Below are positions 4,580 to 20,883 of a stretch of DNA of 24,000 nt, in pieces (the first letter of the stretch is position 1; each line of letters starts with the position of its first letter). The notes under the pieces are model-generated. The model saw only the letters and a program-made list of their open reading frames with translations, was not told the DNA's origin and searched no databases. This DNA comes from Sporosarcina sp. HYO08 (GTDB taxonomy: Bacteria > Bacillota > Bacilli > Bacillales_A > Planococcaceae). Position numbers and translations under genes: made by a program. The DNA lies in contig NZ_LPUT01000003.1 in NCBI RefSeq assembly GCF_001563475.1, positions 19,632 through 43,631 of the forward strand. Direction: 5' to 3'.

Positions 4580-4903
4580 ATGAATGTGCAGTTCAAAAAA
4601 GGTGTGCTGAATCTTTGTGTGTTGGCATTGCTTGAGCAAGAAGATCGTTATGGGTATGAACTCGTGCAGAAGATTTCCGGTCAGATTGCGATTTCGGAAG
4701 GATCGGTGTATCCCCTGCTGCGGCGTTTGACGAAGGAAGGGTATTTTACGACGTATTTGAAGGAGTCGACGGAGGGGCCGCCGCGGAAATATTATCAGTT
4801 GACGGAAGAGGGCCGGGCGTATTTGCAAGAGCAGCTAAGTGAGTGGCGGAAGTTTACGGATGGGGTTAATGCTTTACTAAAGGAGAGTGTGCGAAATGAC
4901 TGA
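4580..4903 (+). CDS. PadR-family transcriptional regulator
   Basis: ATG 4580 lies 11 nt after AAAGGAG. Winged-helix signature GVLNLCVLALLEQEDRYGYELVQKI...EGSVYPLLRRLTKEGYF...YYQLTEEG. Confidence 0.85.
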   Translation: MNVQFKKGVLNLCVLALLEQEDRYGYELVQKISGQIAISEGSVYPLLRRLTKEGYFTTYLKESTEGPPRKYYQLTEEGRAYLQEQLSEWRKFTDGVNALLKESVRND

Positions 4904-5915
4904 ACAGCAATTTCTTATGGAACTGGAGAATGCGTTGAAGCGGCTGCCATCTGATGAGCGGAATGATATACTCCAGGACATTCGCGAATATTTTATGGAT
5001 GGTCGGGAAGATGGAAAAACGGACGCGGAAATTGCGGCTTCGCTTGGTTCGCCGATTGGCATTGCAGAAGAGCTGCTTGCTGCTTATGATTTTTCGGAAG
5101 CTGAAGTGAATACTCCTTCTGCGAATGAATTGATGACAATTGAAAAGCTTTATAAAAATATTAATATTGACGTACAGCACGGTGCATTAACGATTATGCC
5201 TTCATTGGGTGATGTGACGACGATAGAGTTGGTCGGACGACAAGATAAAATGCAGCTGACGGCGGATGTCATTGCGGATACGCTACATGTAAACTTGCAT
5301 GGATCATGGCTTTGGTCTTTCATGTTCGGCCTTCGTTCCGTAACCGTCAATGTATTGATGCCAAAGAAACTGTATGAAACGGTGACGGTCAAATCGGATA
5401 ATGGAAAAATCGCAGCTGAAAAATTGCTTGGGCAAAGAATCAACATTCGATCCAAGAATGGGCGCATCTCGTTAACCGAAATGGCCGCATCTTCGCTCAG
5501 TGCTGAGACGAACAATGGACGAATTGATATTGCAAAAGTGCAAACTGACAGGCTGCAAGCGAAGACGGATAATGGACGGATTGAGCTTCGGGCAATTGAA
5601 GCCGAGCATATCGCGGTGGAGTCTGATAACGGGCGCATCCAAATGGTTCAAGTGTCCGGCGACATAACCGGCACGACGGATAACGGACGGATTTCGCTTC
5701 AGACGGATCATCTGGATCGAAATATCGATTTGCAGACGGACAATGGCAGCATTGAACTCCAATCGGATATGAAGCCGACGAATGTGGACATTCGGGCAAA
5801 GACGAATCATGGCCGAGTGGATGTCTTTGGCGGGCGCAATTCACGCACGGTCATTGGTGCTGGGGAAAATGTGATTCGACTGAAGTCTGCGAATGGGCGG
5901 ATTACGGTGGGTTGA
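4896..5915 (+). CDS. DUF1700 (HAAS-type, PadR-associated) N-terminal domain fused to a DUF4097 beta-helix repeat domain
   Basis: ATG 4896 overlaps the PadR stop and follows AAGGAGAG. N-terminus is MTEQQFLMELENALKRLPSDERNDILQDIREYF. The C-terminal half carries about 10 repeats of the [DN]NG[RK]I motif typical of DUF4097. Confidence 0.75.
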   Translation: MTEQQFLMELENALKRLPSDERNDILQDIREYFMDGREDGKTDAEIAASLGSPIGIAEELLAAYDFSEAEVNTPSANELMTIEKLYKNINIDVQHGALTIMPSLGDVTTIELVGRQDKMQLTADVIADTLHVNLHGSWLWSFMFGLRSVTVNVLMPKKLYETVTVKSDNGKIAAEKLLGQRINIRSKNGRISLTEMAASSLSAETNNGRIDIAKVQTDRLQAKTDNGRIELRAIEAEHIAVESDNGRIQMVQVSGDITGTTDNGRISLQTDHLDRNIDLQTDNGSIELQSDMKPTNVDIRAKTNHGRVDVFGGRNSRTVIGAGENVIRLKSANGRITVG

Positions 5916-6104
5916 GGGGAACTCGGCTGGCGTTGCGGGAAACTCAGGCGCTGTTGAGGGGAACTCGACTGGCGTTGCGGGTAACTCGGGCGCTGTTGGG
6001 GGGAACTCGGCTGGCGTTGCGGGGAACTCGACTGGCGTTGCGGGGAACTCAAGCGCTATTGAGGGGAACTCGACCACCTTTGCGGGAAACTCGCTCCAAA
6101 CTGG
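5916..6104. repeat. Tandem array of 9 x 21 bp (consensus GGGGAACTCGRCTGGCGTTGC alternating with GGGRAACTCRGGCGCTGTTGR)
   Basis: Units start at 5916, 5937, 5958, 5979, 6000, 6021, 6042, 6063 and 6084. Units 1 and 5 are identical, and units 3 and 6 are identical. The array starts one base after the stop codon of the DUF4097 gene and ends before the terminator at 6127. Confidence 0.9.
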
Positions 6105-7812: not shown

Positions 7813-7987
7813 GCTGTGTGTTTTGCGATTGGTTGGTGACTAGGGCGCTTTGGTTGGACACTTAGCGCTCCCCATCATTTTTCCCTCTAGTCATCTTTTG
7901 TACAAGTCTCACGTACTGTGTGTAAAGCATTTCTTTCGTAAAACGATAATTACGCGGATGCCCCATCATAATTTTGGAGGTAAGCCT

Positions 7988-9067
7988 ATGCCTAAAATTG
8001 TATCGGTCCGTTCGTTCAAGCCGCCGTATGAAGTAAAGCAAGAAGAGGCCACCGAGTTGACGCGCTCCTTATTCAGCGAAAAATATAAAGACATCGAACG
8101 GCTGTTGACCGTTTTTCAAAATGGCGACATCGAAACGCGCCATGTTTGTATGCCGATTGAGTGGTATGCCAAAGATCATGATTTTGAAGAGCGTAATGAT
8201 TTGTATATTGAACATGCGGTCGATTATGGGATTCAAGCGGTTTTGTCTTGTTTGGAAGGAAGTGGAACACTGGAAACATCAGTGGACCCTTCACTCATTG
8301 ACGCCATTTTCTTCATCTCCAGCAGCGGACTTGCGACACCAAGCATTGATGCGCGCATTATGAACCGGATTCTGTTTCGGGATGATGTGAAGCGGATTCC
8401 GATTTGGGGACTTGGTTGTGCGGGCGGGGCTGCGGGGTTGAGTCGGGCGTATGAATATTGCCTCGCATTTCCGAAGGCGAATGTGCTTGTGCTGTCTGTG
8501 GAATTATGCAGTTTGACGTTTCAAAAAGATGATTATTCCAAAAGTAATTTAGTCGGCGTGTCATTGTTTTCAGACGGGGTTGCTTGTGCGCTTGTCGTTG
8601 GCGATCAATCTCCGATTCAAGCGAATCAAGCGGTTCCTTCGATCATCGCGACAACTTCCAAACTTATGCCGGAGTCAGAAAACGTCATGGGGTGGGATGT
8701 GAAAAACAATGGATTATACGTCGTTTTCTCAAAAAGCATCCCCGCCATTATTACAAATTGGCTTGGTCCATTTGTGCATACTTTTTTGAATGAACATGGT
8801 TTATCCAAAGACGATATCACCCATTTCGTCGCACATCCAGGCGGCAAAAAAATATTGACGGCCTACGAAGAAGCGCTTGGATTTAATGAAAATATGACAG
8901 AAATTTCTCGGGAAATATTACGAGAAAATGGCAACATGTCTTCCCCGACCGTTTTATATGTACTGGAAAAGTTTATGCAAAGTGAAGCGACTGCAGGTGA
9001 TTTTGGATTAATGGCAGCACTTGGCCCCGGTTTTTGCGGCGAGTTGCTGTTGCTAAAGTGGGAGTGA
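7988..9067 (+). CDS. bpsA: Type III polyketide synthase (chalcone-synthase superfamily, BpsA-like)
   Basis: ATG 7988 follows GGAGG. Cys-His-Asn triad contexts are present: WGLGCAGGAAGL, FVAHPGGKKIL and ENGNMSSPTVL. The ICMT-type methyltransferase gene follows, as in B. subtilis bpsA-bpsB(ypbQ). Confidence 0.85.
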   Translation: MPKIVSVRSFKPPYEVKQEEATELTRSLFSEKYKDIERLLTVFQNGDIETRHVCMPIEWYAKDHDFEERNDLYIEHAVDYGIQAVLSCLEGSGTLETSVDPSLIDAIFFISSSGLATPSIDARIMNRILFRDDVKRIPIWGLGCAGGAAGLSRAYEYCLAFPKANVLVLSVELCSLTFQKDDYSKSNLVGVSLFSDGVACALVVGDQSPIQANQAVPSIIATTSKLMPESENVMGWDVKNNGLYVVFSKSIPAIITNWLGPFVHTFLNEHGLSKDDITHFVAHPGGKKILTAYEEALGFNENMTEISREILRENGNMSSPTVLYVLEKFMQSEATAGDFGLMAALGPGFCGELLLLKWE

Positions 9068-9077
9068 GGAAGCGCCT

Positions 9078-9620
9078 ATGATCTTTGCATCCGTCATGAT
9101 ATTCGTCATTTTACAGCGGCTTGTGGAATTGTTCATCGCCAAACGAAACGAGAAATGGATGTTAAACCAAGGCGCTTTCGAAGTAGGTGCCGCCCATTAT
9201 CCGGCCATGGTCGTCATGCATATTTCATTTTTTGCCACGCTCATCATTGAAGTGACGTTGTTCGATCGAGCCTTATCCCCGCTTTTAGATTACTTATTTG
9301 GCGCTTTTTTATTATTACAGACCGCAAGAATTTGGTGTCTCACTTCTTTAGGTCGATTTTGGAACACGAAAATCATCATTTTACCTGGTGCTGAAGTTGT
9401 TCGAAAAGGGCCGTATCGCTTTATGCGGCACCCGAATTATACGATCGTTACACTTGAATTACTTATCCTTCCCCTACTATTCAGCGCGTATCTCACCACG
9501 ATTATTTTCGCGGTGCTTAACGCCTGGATGCTGTCGATTCGGATACCGGCGGAGGAAAAGGCGCTACGGGAAGCGACGGATTATGGACAGACCATGTTAC
9601 GTGCCACTTCGAAGGAGTAA
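9078..9620 (+). CDS. bpsB: Isoprenylcysteine carboxyl methyltransferase-family membrane methyltransferase (BpsB/YpbQ-like)
   Basis: 180 aa, multi-TM. Has the motif GPYRFMRHPNY...E..ILP and starts 10 nt after the bpsA stop. Confidence 0.8.
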   Translation: MIFASVMIFVILQRLVELFIAKRNEKWMLNQGAFEVGAAHYPAMVVMHISFFATLIIEVTLFDRALSPLLDYLFGAFLLLQTARIWCLTSLGRFWNTKIIILPGAEVVRKGPYRFMRHPNYTIVTLELLILPLLFSAYLTTIIFAVLNAWMLSIRIPAEEKALREATDYGQTMLRATSKE

Positions 9621-9656
9621 GTGCAACTTTGCCATTGTAAGTGCAACTCTCTTCAT
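9617..9656. repeat. 2 x 20 bp tandem repeat GTAAGTGCAACT-N8
   Basis: GTAAGTGCAACTTTGCCATT / GTAAGTGCAACTCTCTTCAT. The TAA of the first unit is the bpsB stop codon (9618-9620). Confidence 0.75.
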
Positions 9657-9663
9657 TCACCCA

Positions 9664-9711
9664 TAAAAAATAACCCATCTTGATTGAGTAACTCGATGGG
9701 TTATCCCTATC
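9664..9711. terminator. Terminator-like hairpin, left copy of a duplicated element
   Basis: 10-bp stem ATAACCCATC-type (9670-9679 / 9695-9704). An A-run lies directly upstream, so it is a good minus-strand terminator. On the plus strand the T-run (9711-9717) is 7 nt from the stem. Confidence 0.6.
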
Positions 9712-9770
9712 TTTTTTCTTTTTAAAAGCTATATACTGTCATTGTTCAATGAGTCAAAATAGCAAACCCC

Positions 9771-9779
9771 TGTTATAAT
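9771..9779 (+). promoter_or_regulatory. Candidate extended -10 promoter for the orphan ORF
   Basis: TGtTATAAT at 9771-9779. I found no convincing -35. Confidence 0.35.
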
Positions 9780-9850
9780 TAAAACCTCATATTCTTTTAG
9801 ATACATTTGTTATATACTAGGACTAGTATCCTAAAAAGGTTGTAAGATAT

Positions 9851-10270
9851 ATGACAATAAGTATAAATATAAGTGCTACCAAAACCCAGTTAGTTGGAAT
9901 TATTCCAAAGTGTATTATCGATTATTATTCTATTCAATGTTCTAATTTTGAAGTTTATATGCCGCCCGGCGTTTTAAAACATTTAAAAAAACGAGGTCAC
10001 TGGGGCGACTTTGAAAGGTATTATCATGAAATACCTCGTATGATTGCCGAACCTGATTATGCTGGTCAAAATCCAAAAGAGCCAAATTCAGTGGAATTGT
10101 ACAAAATTCTAAGCGATCATGTGATCCTGCCAATAAAATTAAATATAGAAACTGGTTTATTTTTGAGCTCTTTTTATACCTTAGATAACGGGGTTGAGAA
10201 AATTCAAAAGCGATTAAGAACCGGACGTATTTACCCTTTTTCATTCTTTACAAACCAAGCAAAATCATAA
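9851..10270 (+). CDS. Orphan 139-aa protein, possible BECR-fold (PBECR-like) nuclease/toxin domain
   Basis: About 30% GC. The pattern VYMPPGVLKHLKKRGHW..F..YYHEIPRMIAEPDYAGQNPKEPNSVELYK....HVILPIKLN...GLFLSSFYTL......IQKRLRTGRIYPF resembles, from memory, phage/ICE-associated PBECR nuclease domains (H-x-H-type block, PDY.G.NP block, C-terminal GR[IL]). Confidence 0.5.
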   Translation: MTISINISATKTQLVGIIPKCIIDYYSIQCSNFEVYMPPGVLKHLKKRGHWGDFERYYHEIPRMIAEPDYAGQNPKEPNSVELYKILSDHVILPIKLNIETGLFLSSFYTLDNGVEKIQKRLRTGRIYPFSFFTNQAKS

Positions 10271-10367
10271 CAATTGTTTACAAATAACGCATGCTAGTGT
10301 ATTATAATAAGTGAGAAGAATTGTTATTTAGTTGGTTATTTAGACAAAATCATGAATATATTAAATA

Positions 10368-10462
10368 CATAAAGGTTATTTGAGGTGGGAAAGGTTCCCC
10401 ACGCGCTATCTTATTGATAGTTACCAGAGATCAGGATTGCCGCCCTGCTTATAACCTTTATG
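10368..10462 (+). ncRNA. Candidate structured RNA: 12-bp closing stem enclosing three hairpins (cloverleaf-like); class unknown
   Basis: P1 is 10368-10379 / 10451-10462, 12 perfect bp. Hairpins: GTGGGAA-AGG-TTC(C)CCAC (10385-10402), CTATC-TTATT-GATAG (10406-10420), CAGG-N8-CCTG (10432-10447). It lies upstream of the plus-strand-only terminator at 10471. Confidence 0.35.
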
Positions 10463-10470
10463 ACTGAGAT

Positions 10471-10500
10471 ACCCTCTTCATTCATGAAGAGGGTTCTTTT
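10471..10500 (+). terminator. Strong plus-strand intrinsic terminator
   Basis: ACCCTCTTCA (10471-10480) / TGAAGAGGGT (10485-10494), followed by TCTTTTT. There is no T-run in the opposite orientation. Confidence 0.8.
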
Positions 10501-10560
10501 TATCCTAAATAAGGATACTTTATTTGAATAGATCCCAATCTTGATTCTATCCTTTATCCG

Positions 10561-10605
10561 TAAAAAATAACCCATCTGCTCAAATTCAGATGGGCTATCC
10601 CTATC
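10561..10605 (-). terminator. Terminator of the NhaC-family gene; right copy of the duplicated hairpin
   Basis: Same arms as 9664-9711: TAAAAAATAACCCATCT is 17/17 identical and GATGGGCTATCCCTATC is 16/17. On the minus strand the stem is followed by TTTTTTAC. Confidence 0.75.
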
Positions 10606-10647
10606 AAATGTCGATCCCATTACGTGTACAGCGATTTAAAATCCCTA

Positions 10648-12027
10648 TCACTTCTCATACGTCAACGTCTTCCCAGCCATTCCAAACAACACAGTTAACA
10701 CTGGTGACAACAGGCAAAAGAATGCAAATGGCAAGTATGCGAGCGTCGGGACATCGAGCACGTTCGTAATGAAAATACCACACACACTCCATGGGACGAG
10801 CGGGTTGACGACGGTTCCGGCGTCTTCCATCACACGGCTCAAGTTTTTGCCAGCTAAGCCGAGTTTTTCATATTGCGCTTGAAACGCTTGGCCGGTTAAT
10901 AAAATCGATAAGTATTGCTCACCGATCAAAACGTTGATGCCGATCGCGGTGAGCGCTGATGCAAAGATGACAGATGCTGCTTTTTTCAGCATGCTCTCGA
11001 TTTTGCCAAGGAGGCACTGGACGATGCCGAGCGTGAACAATAGTCCGCCCATGCTTAGCGCAAGCAACACGAGCCCGACGGTGAACATCATGCTGTTCAT
11101 GCCGCCCCGCGTTAACAATGCGTCAATTTCATCCATTCCGATATTTGACACATAGCCGTTGAATAGAATGCTCAACACTTCCGTCGCGCTAAACGTGTGA
11201 TGGAAGTATGAAATGACAACGGCACTCGCGGAACTGACTGCCAACGTCATCATTGCCGGCACTTTCTTGATCGATAAAATGACTAACACGATGATCGGCA
11301 ATACGGTGTACCAATGGATCATCCCCGTTTGCAAAAGTCCATCTTGGAACGCTTGAATTTTCGCTGTATCTTCAAACTGGACTTTCGGTGATAAAATCCC
11401 AAATAGGACGGCGGAAATAAGAAATGCTGGAACTGTTGTCCACGCCATATTTTTAATATGTGCGAATAAATCGACGCGAACAATGGATGATGCAAGGTTT
11501 GTTGTGTCCGAAAGCGGCGACATTTTATCCCCAAAAAAGGCACCGGAAACAATTGCGCCTGCTGTCATCGCAAGCGATACGTCGAGTACGCTCGCCATGC
11601 CAATAAACGCAACCCCTACTGTCGCGACGGTTGTCAATGAACTGCCGATCGACACACCAACAATCGATGCGACGACAAAGACGATCGCCAAGAAAAATTG
11701 CGGTGTCACTAAGTGAAAGCCTGCATAAATGAGTGTTGGAATCGTCCCGCCCATCATCCAGCTGCTAATTAAAATGCCGATGAAAAAGAATAAAAACACG
11801 GCGCTCATGCCAGCGCCCGCCCCATCGACTAACCCTTTCTCTAGCCTCTTGTATGACACTTTTTTCAACAAGCCGTAACCGATCAGCAGTAAGATGGACA
11901 GTAAAATCGGCACATGCGGCACCGCGTCAAAGAAAATAATGCTCGCGCTGATCATTGCAACGATCATCACGATTAAGGCGACAGCCTCTGAAAATTTAGG
12001 TTGAATCACTGCTTTTATTTGAAACAC
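10648..12027 (-). CDS. NhaC-family membrane transporter (annotated type: Na+/H+ antiporter; probably an amino-acid transporter given the T-box leader)
   Basis: 459 aa with about 11-12 TM helices. GTG start follows AGGAGG. I recognise it as NhaC-family by overall sequence character. A T-box leader lies directly upstream. Confidence 0.8.
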   Translation of the reverse strand: MFQIKAVIQPKFSEAVALIVMIVAMISASIIFFDAVPHVPILLSILLLIGYGLLKKVSYKRLEKGLVDGAGAGMSAVFLFFFIGILISSWMMGGTIPTLIYAGFHLVTPQFFLAIVFVVASIVGVSIGSSLTTVATVGVAFIGMASVLDVSLAMTAGAIVSGAFFGDKMSPLSDTTNLASSIVRVDLFAHIKNMAWTTVPAFLISAVLFGILSPKVQFEDTAKIQAFQDGLLQTGMIHWYTVLPIIVLVILSIKKVPAMMTLAVSSASAVVISYFHHTFSATEVLSILFNGYVSNIGMDEIDALLTRGGMNSMMFTVGLVLLALSMGGLLFTLGIVQCLLGKIESMLKKAASVIFASALTAIGINVLIGEQYLSILLTGQAFQAQYEKLGLAGKNLSRVMEDAGTVVNPLVPWSVCGIFITNVLDVPTLAYLPFAFFCLLSPVLTVLFGMAGKTLTYEK

Positions 12028-16030: not shown

Positions 16031-16128
16031 CAGATTTTGAATTGAGGCCTACAGGATGTAGGTCATGCAGTCATTGCGACAGGACGTCGCGTACTTAGAC
16101 TGCCTTCCTTAACTCCTTTCAAAATCTG
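16031..16128 (-). ncRNA. Bacillaceae-1-like RNA motif (two hairpins with RUCCU loops)
   Basis: Minus strand carries GCGAC-GUCCU-GUCGC (16090-16076) and CCUAC-AUCCU-GUAGG (16062-16048). These are enclosed by an 11-bp outer stem (16031-16041 / 16118-16128). As I recall it, the published Bacillaceae-1 motif is two stem-loops with RUCCU terminal loops. Confidence 0.5.
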
Positions 16129-18518: not shown

Positions 18519-18533
18519 GCACCCACACAATTT
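18519..18533. repeat. 15-bp direct repeat, left copy (GCACCCACACAATTT)
   Basis: Identical 15-mer occurs at 19183-19197. It is embedded in a GGTGCCAGGCACC palindrome (18511-18523). Confidence 0.9.
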
Positions 18534-18536
18534 GAT

Positions 18537-19040
18537 CTAGATGACTGTTTTTCTACCTGTCATGTTATGTCGATAATTTCTCAAATGCAATTCAATTTCA
18601 ATGATCATTTGATTGAATAACACAATTAATTCTTTTTCCCTATCTGGCAAAAGTTCTTCATAAAAAATCGATTCGGCAATGATGTAATCCATAAGCCGAA
18701 TTTTATCGGCAACTTCCTGATCAATTAAATAAAATCTTGAAAAGAACACCGGTCTAAACTTTTCACTAAATGCCTGTAAATTGAAGTTAATAGTACTTCC
18801 ATCGATATGTTCTTGCATTAAATTTTCGCCGTCTAACTTGATAATATCGCTGTAAATGGACAGACGCTCGATATTTCGTTCATCTTTCTCCTTTTCGATC
18901 TCCCGCTTAATTTGTTTTTTGAGCTTATGCGATTGCGTAATGAATGTTGCTGCACTACCAATAATGACGCCGATCAGCGGCAATACGCCAATCAACAATT
19001 GTGACCAATCCACTTCAATTCCCCTTCCCTTTATCTTCAT
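18537..19040 (-). CDS. Orphan AT-rich gene: single-pass membrane protein with coiled-coil and helical cytoplasmic domain, function unknown
   Basis: 167-aa ORF. GTG 19013 has the better RBS (AAGGGGAA plus 6 nt) and would give 158 aa. TM segment LLIGVLPLIGVIIGSAATFI followed by KKQIKREIEKEKDERNIERL. About 28% GC by hand count at 18601-18660. Confidence 0.5.
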   Translation of the reverse strand: MKIKGRGIEVDWSQLLIGVLPLIGVIIGSAATFITQSHKLKKQIKREIEKEKDERNIERLSIYSDIIKLDGENLMQEHIDGSTINFNLQAFSEKFRPVFFSRFYLIDQEVADKIRLMDYIIAESIFYEELLPDREKELIVLFNQMIIEIELHLRNYRHNMTGRKTVI

Positions 19041-19182
19041 CGTAAGGAAGACTTCTCTTCATTGGATTTTAGATTGGAAAAGAACTCTCCAACTAGACTT
19101 TCTATTCCTCTGTCAGCATCTTATTATATGCAGCTAGCAACTAATGGTTTTCTTCGTGACACGCCAGGCAAAATGAGCGCGT

Positions 19183-19197
19183 GCACCCACACAATTT
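19183..19197. repeat. 15-bp direct repeat, right copy (GCACCCACACAATTT)
   Basis: Identical to 18519-18533. GCCAGGCA also recurs just upstream (19162-19169 versus 18514-18521). Confidence 0.9.
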
Positions 19198-19201
19198 CAG
19201 C

Positions 19202-19291
19202 TTATTTTTTGATAAATAGCATGATCACCATGCCAATAAGCAAAATGAGTCCAATGACACCGAACAATAAAATGAATAAAATCATACTCAT
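19202..19291 (-). CDS. Possible small hydrophobic peptide (29 aa; 32 aa if started at 19300)
   Basis: Below the ORF-track cutoff. AAAGGGGGA RBS, then ATG. Sequence MSMILFILLFGVIGLILLIGMVIMLFIKK is one TM helix plus a KK tail. No dedicated promoter is visible: it starts about 10 nt after the metK terminator. Confidence 0.3.
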   Translation of the reverse strand: MSMILFILLFGVIGLILLIGMVIMLFIKK

Positions 19292-19362: not shown

Positions 19363-20574
19363 TTATTTTACAGGCGTTAATTTTGAAGCGCGTGCTTTCA
19401 ATTCATCTGCTTTGTCTGTTTGCTCCCAAGGCAATTCAACATCTGTACGGCCGAAGTGACCGTATGCTGCGGTTTGTTTGTAAATTGGACGGCGCAGGTC
19501 AAGCATTTTAATGATGCCTGCTGGGCGCAGGTCGAATAGTTCGCGAACGAGTGTCACCAGTTCGCTTTCTGCAACTTTTCCTGTTCCAAATGTATCGACG
19601 GAAATCGAAACTGGCTGTGCAACACCGATTGCGTAAGCCAGCTGTACTTCACAGCGATCCGCAAGGCCTGCCGCCACAAGATTTTTCGCTACATAACGTG
19701 CGGCATAAGAAGCGGAACGGTCCACTTTTGTTGCGTCTTTTCCAGAAAATGCACCGCCGCCATGACGCGCATAGCCACCGTATGTGTCGACGATAATTTT
19801 ACGACCTGTTAAACCAGCGTCTCCTTGTGGTCCACCGATGACAAAACGGCCTGTCGGGTTAATGAAGAATTTCGTTTCCTCATCCATTAAATCAGCCGGT
19901 ACGACCGCGTTAATAACCGATTCTTTAATGTCATGCTGAATTTGCTCAAGTGTGATTTCTGGATGGTGCTGTGTTGAAATGACGATTGTATCGATGCGAA
20001 CTGGGTTGTTGTCTTCATCATATTCGATCGTGACTTGTGTTTTTCCATCCGGGCGAAGATAAGGAATAATTTCTTCTTTTCGTACTTGTGCCAGACGGCG
20101 GGATAATTTATGCGATAAGCTGATTGGAAGCGGCATAAGTTCAGGTGTTTCGTTGCACGCGTAACCGAACATCAGTCCTTGGTCTCCTGCACCGATTGCT
20201 TCTAATTCTTCATCAGTCATAGAACCTTCACGGGCTTCCAATGCTTGGTCAACACCCGCTGCAATATCTGGTGATTGCTCGTCAATCGCAGTAAGCACTG
20301 CCGATGTTTCGTAGTCAAAGCCATATTTCGCTCGTGTATAGCCGATTTCCTTCACCGTATCACGAACAACTTTCGGAATGTCTACATATGTTGTAGTCGT
20401 GATTTCTCCTGAGATCAAGACGAGGCCTGTTGTAATTGTCGTTTCACACGCAACACGCGCATTTGGATCTTCCGTTAAAATAGCATCCAAAATGGCATCC
20501 GAAATTTGGTCACACATTTTATCTGGATGGCCTTCTGTTACTGATTCTGAAGTAAATAGTCGACGGTTTGTCAT
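19363..20574 (-). CDS. metK: S-adenosylmethionine synthetase
   Basis: 403 aa. [26 protein letters not shown]..., GAGDQG and GGGAFSGKD motifs. AAGGAGG RBS, with an S-box leader upstream. Confidence 0.95.
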
Positions 20575-20701: not shown

Positions 20702-20883
20702 AGAAAAAGCCTTTGCTCACGTAAAAATACATGAGGAAAGGCATAATTTTACAAGCACCTTTCACTCTTATCGTCCAAGGAACTATGCCTTGCATCAGGT
20801 TCGGCACCTTCGCGTTAGACTTTCGTCTTTGCAGGTTGCCGGGCTTCATAGGGCCTGATCCCTCCACCAGCTCGGGATAAGAG
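20702..20883 (-). promoter_or_regulatory. SAM-I (S-box) riboswitch with terminator
   Basis: Minus strand: CUCUUAUCccGAGcuGGuGGAGGGAucaGGCCCuaUGAAgCCCGGCAACC...GGUGCCgAAccuGA...GAUAAGAG (aptamer 20883-20765). A terminator stem follows (plus 20709-20721 / 20730-20742) with a U-run. Confidence 0.85.

Follow-up and report, generated by a model that had tools for sequence, protein, structure and literature searches.

A PBECR3-domain gene and a skipping-rope RNA form a foreign cassette between two copies of a terminator hairpin in Sporosarcina sp. HYO08

A bpsB-like gene and an NhaC-family gene of Sporosarcina sp. HYO08 converge on a spacer of 1,027 bp, measured from stop codon to stop codon, within a 24,000-nt stretch of contig NZ_LPUT01000003.1 (hereafter the window, to which all positions refer unless another locus is named). 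The bpsB-like gene on the left (9078..9620, plus strand; hereafter bpsB) encodes a methyltransferase of the ICMT family (Pfam ICMT, E 3e-28), and its product is 100% identical to protein P0100 of Sporosarcina sp. HYO08. The gene on the right (10648..12027, minus strand; hereafter nhaC) encodes an NhaC-family Na+/H+ antiporter (Pfam Na_H_antiporter, E 8.8e-54). Between them lies a small cassette bracketed by two copies of one terminator hairpin. A reading made earlier from the DNA letters (hereafter the original prediction) described this as an autonomous cassette inserted at, or mobilised through, the hairpin and carrying its own promoter, an orphan open reading frame (ORF), a structured RNA and a terminator. 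All four elements are present; the ORF, however, is not an orphan, as it encodes a domain of the Pfam family PBECR3.

The ORF (9851..10270, plus strand) encodes a protein of 139 amino acids (aa) consisting of a solo PBECR3 domain, a predicted metal-independent endoribonuclease (endoRNase) of the Barnase-EndoU-ColicinE5/D-RelE (BECR) fold. The match to PF18812 (E 1.1e-12) scores 48.3 bits against a cut-off of 30 and covers profile positions 10-109 of 115. PBECR stands for phage-Barnase-EndoU-ColicinE5/D-RelE-like nuclease, and the domains so named are predicted to be metal-independent endoRNases (Iyer et al. 2017, PMC5512222). As described in the PBECR passages of the same paper, BECR-fold RNases are common as toxins, some PBECR domains are regarded as RNA binders that lack activity, and solo versions of PBECR3 occur in phages and plasmids (PMC5512222). 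The window protein is such a solo version, with the conserved His in the N-terminal helix region and the C-terminal Ser of the family; it is not fused into a polyvalent, MuF or portal protein as some members of PF18812 are.

Ninety-nine homologues of about 135 aa are distributed across the Bacillales; they are 53-76% identical to the window protein, except for a partial protein of the same genome with 100% identity. NCBI labels the homologues 'plasmid-related protein', and NCBIfam has no model for the window protein. An alignment of 37 sequences supports the start codon at 9851; in this alignment H44, located in the motif GVLKHLKK and within a predicted helix (residues 39-47), is invariant, and S107 is conserved in at least 90% of the sequences. 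These two residues agree with the active site (His plus Ser/Thr) reported for the PBECR family, and they may well be equivalent to the published catalytic positions. The AlphaFold2 (AF2) model of the protein is confident, with a predicted local distance difference test (pLDDT) score of 88.

Downstream of the ORF, on the same strand, lies a skipping-rope small RNA (sRNA; 10368..10462). Its core (10375-10455) matches the Rfam model RF02924 along its entire length (model positions 1-80 of 80) with 57.2 bits against a gathering score of 36.7 (E 1.8e-11), and the outer stem is extended by a perfect 12-bp inverted repeat that closes the structure (10368-10379 / 10451-10462). The sRNA is preceded by a sigma-70-like promoter of its own (10277..10305, plus strand; TTTACA, 17 nt, TATTAT), and a TTTACAAA-N17-TATAAT-like element is found between the ORF stop and the RNA throughout the other loci that carry this gene and RNA. 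An intrinsic terminator (10471..10501, plus strand) follows, with a 10-bp stem (10471-10494) and a T-run (-18.2 kcal/mol, z -4.5). No structural difference separates the window RNA from the skipping-rope class: it covers the full model, ends in a 3' intrinsic terminator and adjoins a conserved protein gene. The motif was reported to have a 3' terminator and a 'compelling association' with a nearby protein gene, and no self-cleavage was found (Weinberg et al. 2017, PMC5737381). Its discoverers considered that its properties suggest a sophisticated function, maybe 'a biochemically challenging task', and the main text of their paper leaves the associated protein unnamed (PMC5737381). No later functional study of skipping-rope RNA was found in the literature.

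The PBECR3 gene and the skipping-rope RNA constitute one conserved module. By blastn it extends over 9806..10503 (plus strand) and has two parts: a promoter region with the PBECR3 gene, and a second promoter with the skipping-rope RNA and the terminator. DNA identity to other module loci (comparison loci carry L numbers) is 74% over 9806-10495 (L084, L085 and L086) and 73% over 9806-10498 (L081), and weaker matches run to 10503. Loci of PBECR3 relatives were pooled from scans of viral contigs and metagenomes, from look-ups of exact proteins and from a plasmid collection. In 57 of these 62 loci a skipping-rope RNA follows the PBECR3 gene on its strand, approximately 50-200 nt downstream, and a contig end truncates each of the remaining five. 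The pairing persists down to 25-35% protein identity. Both partners belong to described families (PF18812 and RF02924), and the pair is a known type of module. The window PBECR3 gene is obligatorily paired with a structured sRNA, a pairing that the PBECR passages of Iyer et al. (PMC5512222) do not mention. For the skipping-rope RNA, an orphan class since 2017, the consistent partnership with a PBECR3-domain protein, always encoded upstream on the same strand in the complete loci examined, provides a testable hypothesis.

The module, present in dozens of unrelated settings, is mobile cargo of plasmids and of regions resembling defence islands. It is found on a 12-kb MOBQ plasmid and a 34-kb plasmid (Priestia flexa), a 266-kb plasmid (Sporosarcina psychrophila), a MOBV plasmid (Bacillus mycoides) and Macrococcus plasmids. 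Elsewhere it adjoins genes of cyclic-oligonucleotide-based anti-phage signalling systems (CBASS), type I restriction-modification genes, AAA ATPases, integrases and insertion sequence (IS) elements, and one copy is situated between two rRNA operons beside a tyrosine recombinase. No record of the phage collection matches the module.

Several module loci carry additional features. In one clade (L131-L133 and L135-L140) a gene for a 93-aa protein lies approximately 50 nt upstream of the PBECR3 gene (for example, L131 3670-3951); its product shows MazE/AbrB-like matches below threshold (Pfam E 1e-4; NCBIfam AbrB domain E 1.7e-4), which make it a candidate antitoxin protein or regulator for this clade. 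L120 has two tandem skipping-rope RNAs (1447-1518 and 1567-1645) after a single PBECR3-like gene, and L111 has an abiF RNA motif (1112-1148) approximately 660 nt downstream of the skipping-rope RNA. In L087 a group II intron domain (4766-4850) is located approximately 140 nt after the skipping-rope RNA, just past the terminator; group II introns that seek out terminators are known.

The cassette also differs from its surroundings in composition. The insert (9712-10560, approximately 850 bp) has a GC content of 0.32, close to the 30% of the original prediction, which had put the flanking genes at about 50%, a value that proves nearer 45%. The ORF has a GC content of 0.329 and a third-codon-position GC content (GC3) of 0.257, compared with 0.450 +/- 0.033 and 0.464 +/- 0.061 in the other 23 ORFs of the window; it is thus a compositional outlier by more than three standard deviations. 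The conserved module does not fill the insert. Its homology to other copies ends 95 nt inside the left repeat and 47 nt inside the right one, leaving a left filler of about 94 nt (9712..9805) and a right filler of about 46 nt (10504..10549), neither of which has a counterpart in other module copies. The left filler is AT-rich and contains an extended -10-like sequence, TGTTATAAT, at 9771-9779.

On each side of the insert stands a copy of the same terminator segment. When gaps are allowed, the duplicated segment comprises 9653-9711 on the left and 10550-10605 on the right (approximately 56-59 nt). The two blocks by which the original prediction recognised it are both confirmed, namely TAAAAAATAACCCATCT, identical at 17 of 17 positions (9664-9680 and 10561-10577), and GATGGGYTATCCCTATC, identical at 16 of 17 (9695-9711 and 10589-10605). 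None of 2000 shuffles equalled the alignment score of the two copies, and the identity reaches beyond the stems into the flanks. No further copy of either hairpin half exists elsewhere in the window.

The right copy (10550..10605; stem 10567-10578 / 10587-10598, 8-nt loop) is the working terminator of nhaC: on the minus strand its hairpin (-23.3 kcal/mol, z -5.0) precedes a U-run and constitutes a strong, correctly oriented intrinsic terminator. The left copy (9653..9711; stem 9670-9679 / 9695-9704, 15-nt loop, an A-run before and a T-run after) is weaker on that strand (-16.0 kcal/mol), with a larger loop. It had been regarded as a duplicate with nothing to terminate. However, its hairpin lies 43 nt past the bpsB stop codon, a terminator-like element is called on the plus strand at 9695-9711 with the T-run TTTTTTCTTTTT, and the single hairpins at this site in related species are bidirectional; the left copy likely serves bpsB. 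A proposed resemblance of one loop to the reverse complement of the other is weak, being confined to TGA..TTGAG with gaps (global score 1, against 0 for the direct comparison). The sequence ATCTTGATT of the left hairpin (9677-9685) recurs in the right filler at 10538-10546, and ATCCCTATC recurs at the nhaC stop codon (10641-10649).

Related genomes lack the cassette. A scan of the genome collection with the bpsB-like protein yielded 80 loci from the Planococcaceae and Bacillaceae, with identities of at most 70%, and neither the PBECR3 gene nor the skipping-rope RNA occurs in any of them. The convergent arrangement of bpsB and nhaC is found in 22 of these loci. Half of the convergent species (11/22) have a spacer of only 32-99 nt that contains a single hairpin between an A-run and a T-run, that is, a bidirectional terminator. 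An empty site with a single hairpin, as sought on the basis of the original prediction, is thus seen in 11 species, with hairpin sequences that differ from species to species. Because the cassette is absent from all 80 related loci and 11 species display the empty-site architecture, the cassette is foreign DNA that was inserted at the terminator between two convergent genes. In the remaining 11 convergent species the spacer measures 230-2142 nt and its contents are unrelated; the bpsB-nhaC spacer is a hot spot for DNA gain. The spacers of L002, L004, L012, L023 and L040 contain arrays of tandem repeats of approximately 20-30 nt, such as AACTGTAAGAGTAA (L002) and CGAAACGTAG (L012).

A second duplication exists at the same site. 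Sporosarcina sp. ACRSM and S. soli (L009 and L010) have a citrate synthase gene, identified by Pfam, between bpsB and nhaC. It is bracketed by a duplication of approximately 55 nt of the species' own terminator hairpin, which reaches into the nhaC stop codon (L009, 4534-4587 / 5900-5953; L010, 4534-4586 / 5892-5945) and whose score was equalled by 0/2000 and 0/500 shuffles. In L006, whose site is empty, the single hairpin is the orthologue of the right copy. The hairpins of the HYO08 and L009/L010 events have no sequence in common, and their cargo is unrelated. When 146 loci and the window (1.05 Mb) were each compared with themselves, these two sites were the only ones with hairpin-forming direct repeats spaced 250-4000 nt apart. 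At the bpsB-nhaC site, inserts have therefore come to lie between copies of an entire terminator on at least two occasions. As the second duplication affects the same site with other cargo, the duplicated terminator looks like a target-duplication footprint, the scar of entry. The recurrence may also point to a repeatable route of gene gain.

The hairpin does not accompany the module elsewhere. A comparison of flank with flank revealed no flanking hairpins at 15 other module loci. The only flanking repeat among them is a direct repeat of 19 nt in L092 (3749-3767 / 4596-4614), which brackets an 828-bp insert with the PBECR3/skipping-rope module and copies the beginning (start codon and first codons) of a neighbouring gene on the minus strand. 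Flanking repeats were accordingly rejected as a general property of the module, since 14 of the 15 loci have none. The window hairpin sequence is absent from 142 fetched loci and from the plasmid and phage collections. Other cargo does lie between duplicated hairpins, as the original prediction had envisaged, in the two citrate synthase species, where the hairpin is a different one. A scan of viral contigs with an 18-base gapped hairpin pattern gave 37 matches, approximately the number estimated by chance. The hairpin is best read as a resident chromosomal target sequence that was duplicated and not as the end of an element. What stands of the original prediction is a discrete foreign cassette that brings promoters and a terminator of its own and was inserted at a terminator. 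An autonomous cassette that moves through the hairpin is not supported, given that the ORF and the RNA belong to described families, that homology ends at 9806 and 10503, that 15 other loci have no flanking hairpins and that the hairpin is absent from the loci and collections searched.

Taken together, these observations make it probable that a PBECR3/skipping-rope module was acquired horizontally and captured in a non-site-specific manner with duplication of the resident terminator, and that the module consists of a toxin-like RNase and its RNA partner. A fragment of approximately 850 bp, comprising the module and the two unrelated fillers, would have come from a plasmid-like donor and been captured in the short bpsB-nhaC spacer, at or beside the hairpin, most likely without site specificity. 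The resident bidirectional terminator (approximately 56-59 nt) would have been duplicated during the capture, so that both flanking genes would have kept a terminator. One candidate route is the fill-in of a staggered or cruciform/hairpin-associated break followed by end joining; another is a template switch during replication, by which synthesis leaves the chromosome and returns to it at a stalling hairpin. Such duplications leave a terminator on each flanking gene, and the events observed may simply be the survivors of selection. The duplicated terminator is a clean natural example of a cassette slotting between convergent genes, neither of which loses its terminator.

Concerning function, the PBECR3 protein would be a toxin-like endoRNase and the skipping-rope RNA its inhibitor, decoy substrate or specificity partner, and the pair may serve plasmids and genomic islands for addiction or defence, similar in action to type III toxin-antitoxin (TA) systems and differently built. 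Several points argue for a toxin role: the conservation of catalytic-type residues, the location on plasmids and in defence islands, the pairing of gene and RNA that holds strictly over deep divergence, and the MazE-like neighbour in one clade. The frequency of toxins among BECR-fold RNases and the weak structural likeness of the AF2 model to colicin E5 and RelE point in this direction too. If a BECR-fold RNase is indeed controlled by, or acts with, a structured RNA, toxin or defence modules with an RNA partner would gain a new architecture. Like the type III systems ToxIN, CptIN and TenpIN, the module combines a compact protein of endoRNase type with a non-coding RNA that has a terminator, and it resides on plasmids and in defence islands. 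The antitoxin of type III systems, however, is a tandem-repeat RNA array that lies upstream of the toxin gene, with a terminator between the two, whereas the module has a single structured RNA downstream with its own promoter. Its protein has a BECR fold and is not ToxN-like. Type III toxins are endoRNases that process the antitoxin RNA and are kept inactive by it; for the module, RNase activity is predicted from the domain, and processing of the RNA or inhibition by it would be proposed features. The module is therefore not a member of the type III systems, although it perhaps works alike.

Several results weigh against a toxin-like function. A Foldseek search of the AF2 model against the PDB gave nothing significant, with colicin E5 and RelE among the weak neighbours. 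Neither PADLOC nor PHROGs gives a defence or phage assignment for the protein, and the literature yielded no experiment on this PBECR3/skipping-rope family. The RNA is present in single copy downstream of the gene, a layout unlike that of every known type III system. It is possible, although we hold this alternative only tentatively, that the pair is not TA-like and that the RNA is the cofactor, guide or scaffold in a ribonucleoprotein that has some other activity, or that PBECR3 processes or binds a regulatory sRNA that acts on host or plasmid genes. The riboswitch-grade conservation and complexity of the RNA would agree with such a role, as would the 'biochemically challenging task' envisaged by its discoverers (PMC5737381), the order of gene and RNA with separate promoters, and the PBECR domains thought to be inactive RNA binders (PMC5512222). 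The conserved catalytic-type His and Ser, the plasmid and defence-island contexts and the MazE-like neighbour speak for a toxin-like RNase instead, without being decisive.

The proposed capture with terminator duplication also has to face three observations that do not favour it. First, the stems of the two hairpin copies are identical and their loops quite different, which a simple recent fill-in duplication would not predict; a later change, by deletion or inversion, must therefore be invoked in one or both loops. One reading, at most suggestive, makes both copies different deletion derivatives of one longer palindrome. Second, 13 of 14 positions at 9646-9659, immediately before the left hairpin, agree with the 5' arm of the module terminator (10471-10484), a score reached in 16 of 3000 shuffles, and this could mean that the left copy arrived with the insert; the match was picked post hoc from many repeat comparisons. 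Third, no empty site with this very hairpin was found among the bpsB relatives searched, which are at most 72% identical. The databases searched contain no close relative of the source genome: among 5.8 billion proteins, the best bpsB homologue beyond HYO08 itself is at most 72% identical.

Terminator hairpins between convergent genes might be recurrent landing pads, at which hairpin- or cruciform-dependent capture of foreign or paralogous DNA duplicates the entire terminator, as it would have done at least twice at bpsB-nhaC. This capture would need no dedicated transposase or would use an unrecognised structure-specific enzyme; we consider it a doubtful extension of the observations.

A slightly less likely proposal is that the hairpins are true recombination sites, at which an enzyme encoded elsewhere inserts and excises cassettes and thereby duplicates the hairpin. 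Candidate enzymes are recombinases of the tyrosine or HUH type and integrases, either integron-like with folded DNA as substrate or Cas1- or casposase-like. That the bpsB-nhaC terminator received unrelated cargo in two independent events, with approximately 55-59 nt centred on the whole hairpin duplicated each time, would fit such an enzyme, as would the uniqueness of these hairpin repeats in 1.05 Mb of related loci and the recombinase genes that adjoin the module at several other loci. However, Pfam detected no integrase or transposase anywhere in the window, as the original prediction had noted. The recombinases beside the module elsewhere are mutually unrelated (the tyrosine recombinases of L082 and L131) or are serine recombinases, and a single recombinase family travelling with the module was rejected for L082 and L131 being unrelated. 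Moreover, no flanking hairpins accompany the other module copies compared, and the hairpin sequences of the two events are unrelated. To judge from the filler inside the repeats, the ends of the fragment are arbitrary, and the loops, where crossover would be expected, are precisely what differs.

Repeat duplication by Cas1-Cas2 and casposon integration (PMC5137440) likewise place an insert between direct copies of a partly palindromic target; the window, in contrast, encodes no Cas1 or casposase, the duplication is approximately 56-59 nt long, the ends of the insert are undefined and the loops differ. Small cassettes bounded by imperfect palindromes are also typical of integron attC sites, Acinetobacter pdif modules and the palindrome-associated transposable elements (PATEs) derived from IS200/IS605. 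An integron cassette, which would combine a promoterless ORF and an attC site with conserved cores with a nearby IntI integrase and attI, was rejected: the window has no integrase, the insert has two promoters, and a reading of the hairpin sequence reveals no GTTRRRY/RYYYAAC cores. Xer dif/pdif sites are 28 bp long (11-6-11) and alternate in orientation, whereas the hairpin arms here are approximately 10 bp long and 8-15 nt apart, with both copies in the same orientation. IS200/IS605 elements and PATEs have subterminal hairpins at both ends, leave the target unduplicated, exist in several copies per genome and are accompanied by a TnpA gene in the genome; within the 24-kb window, the part of the genome covered here, the repeats are direct beyond the stems, as in a target-site duplication (TSD), two hairpin copies are present and TnpA is lacking. 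A transposon or miniature inverted-repeat transposable element with a TSD was also rejected, as the insert has no terminal inverted repeats and the homology ends in unique filler. Nor is there a fixed TSD length: the flanking repeats measure 56-59 nt here and 19 nt in L092, and are missing from 14 other module loci.

It is improbable that the hairpin arrived with the insert, as it would if a terminally redundant fragment of a circular or concatemeric donor, such as a small plasmid, had replaced the native terminator. The 13/14 match to the module terminator is the main point in favour, and the left copy is therefore readable as a collapsed 3' end of the cassette (10471-10605); small plasmids are, in addition, common carriers of the module. 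The match has the post hoc character mentioned above, the hairpin occurs on no plasmid, phage or other module locus searched, and the right copy is a strong terminator correctly oriented for nhaC. Removal of 9646-10605 would leave convergent genes without a terminator, unlike all 11 empty sites. That nothing was inserted, and that an old, vertically inherited arrangement merely has two independent terminators alike by chance, is very improbable: the alignment score with 0/2000 shuffles, the identity in the non-stem flanks, the compositional deviation of the ORF and the absence of the module from 80 related loci, half of the syntenic ones being empty sites, all contradict it.

Other features of the window include a type III polyketide synthase gene just upstream of bpsB (7850-9067; chalcone/stilbene synthase domains, Pfam). 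The window contains no tRNA or tRNA-like gene. A second low-GC insert with a single gene is located at 18519-19202. Its ORF (18537-19040, minus strand; 167 aa, 0.353 GC) encodes a protein with an apparent hydrophobic N-terminus that has no Pfam match and no significant match in NCBIfam or PADLOC. A direct repeat of 20 nt, identical at 18 of 20 positions, flanks this ORF (GCACCCACACAATTTGATCT at 18519-18538 and GCACCCACACAATTTCAGCT at 19183-19202), with a small palindrome beside each copy. The segment may be another repeat-flanked insertion, and capture at hairpin landing pads, if it operates, may explain this gene as well. A Bacillaceae-1 sRNA (16048-16114, minus strand; 76.2 bits) lies downstream of a UvrD-like helicase gene, and an S-adenosylmethionine (SAM) riboswitch (20765-20883, minus strand) precedes metK (19363-20574). 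An unannotated ORF (19205-19290, minus strand), with the right copy of the 20-nt repeat on one side and the metK terminator on the other, encodes a hydrophobic peptide of 29 aa, MSMILFILLFGVIGLILLIGMVIMLFIKK.

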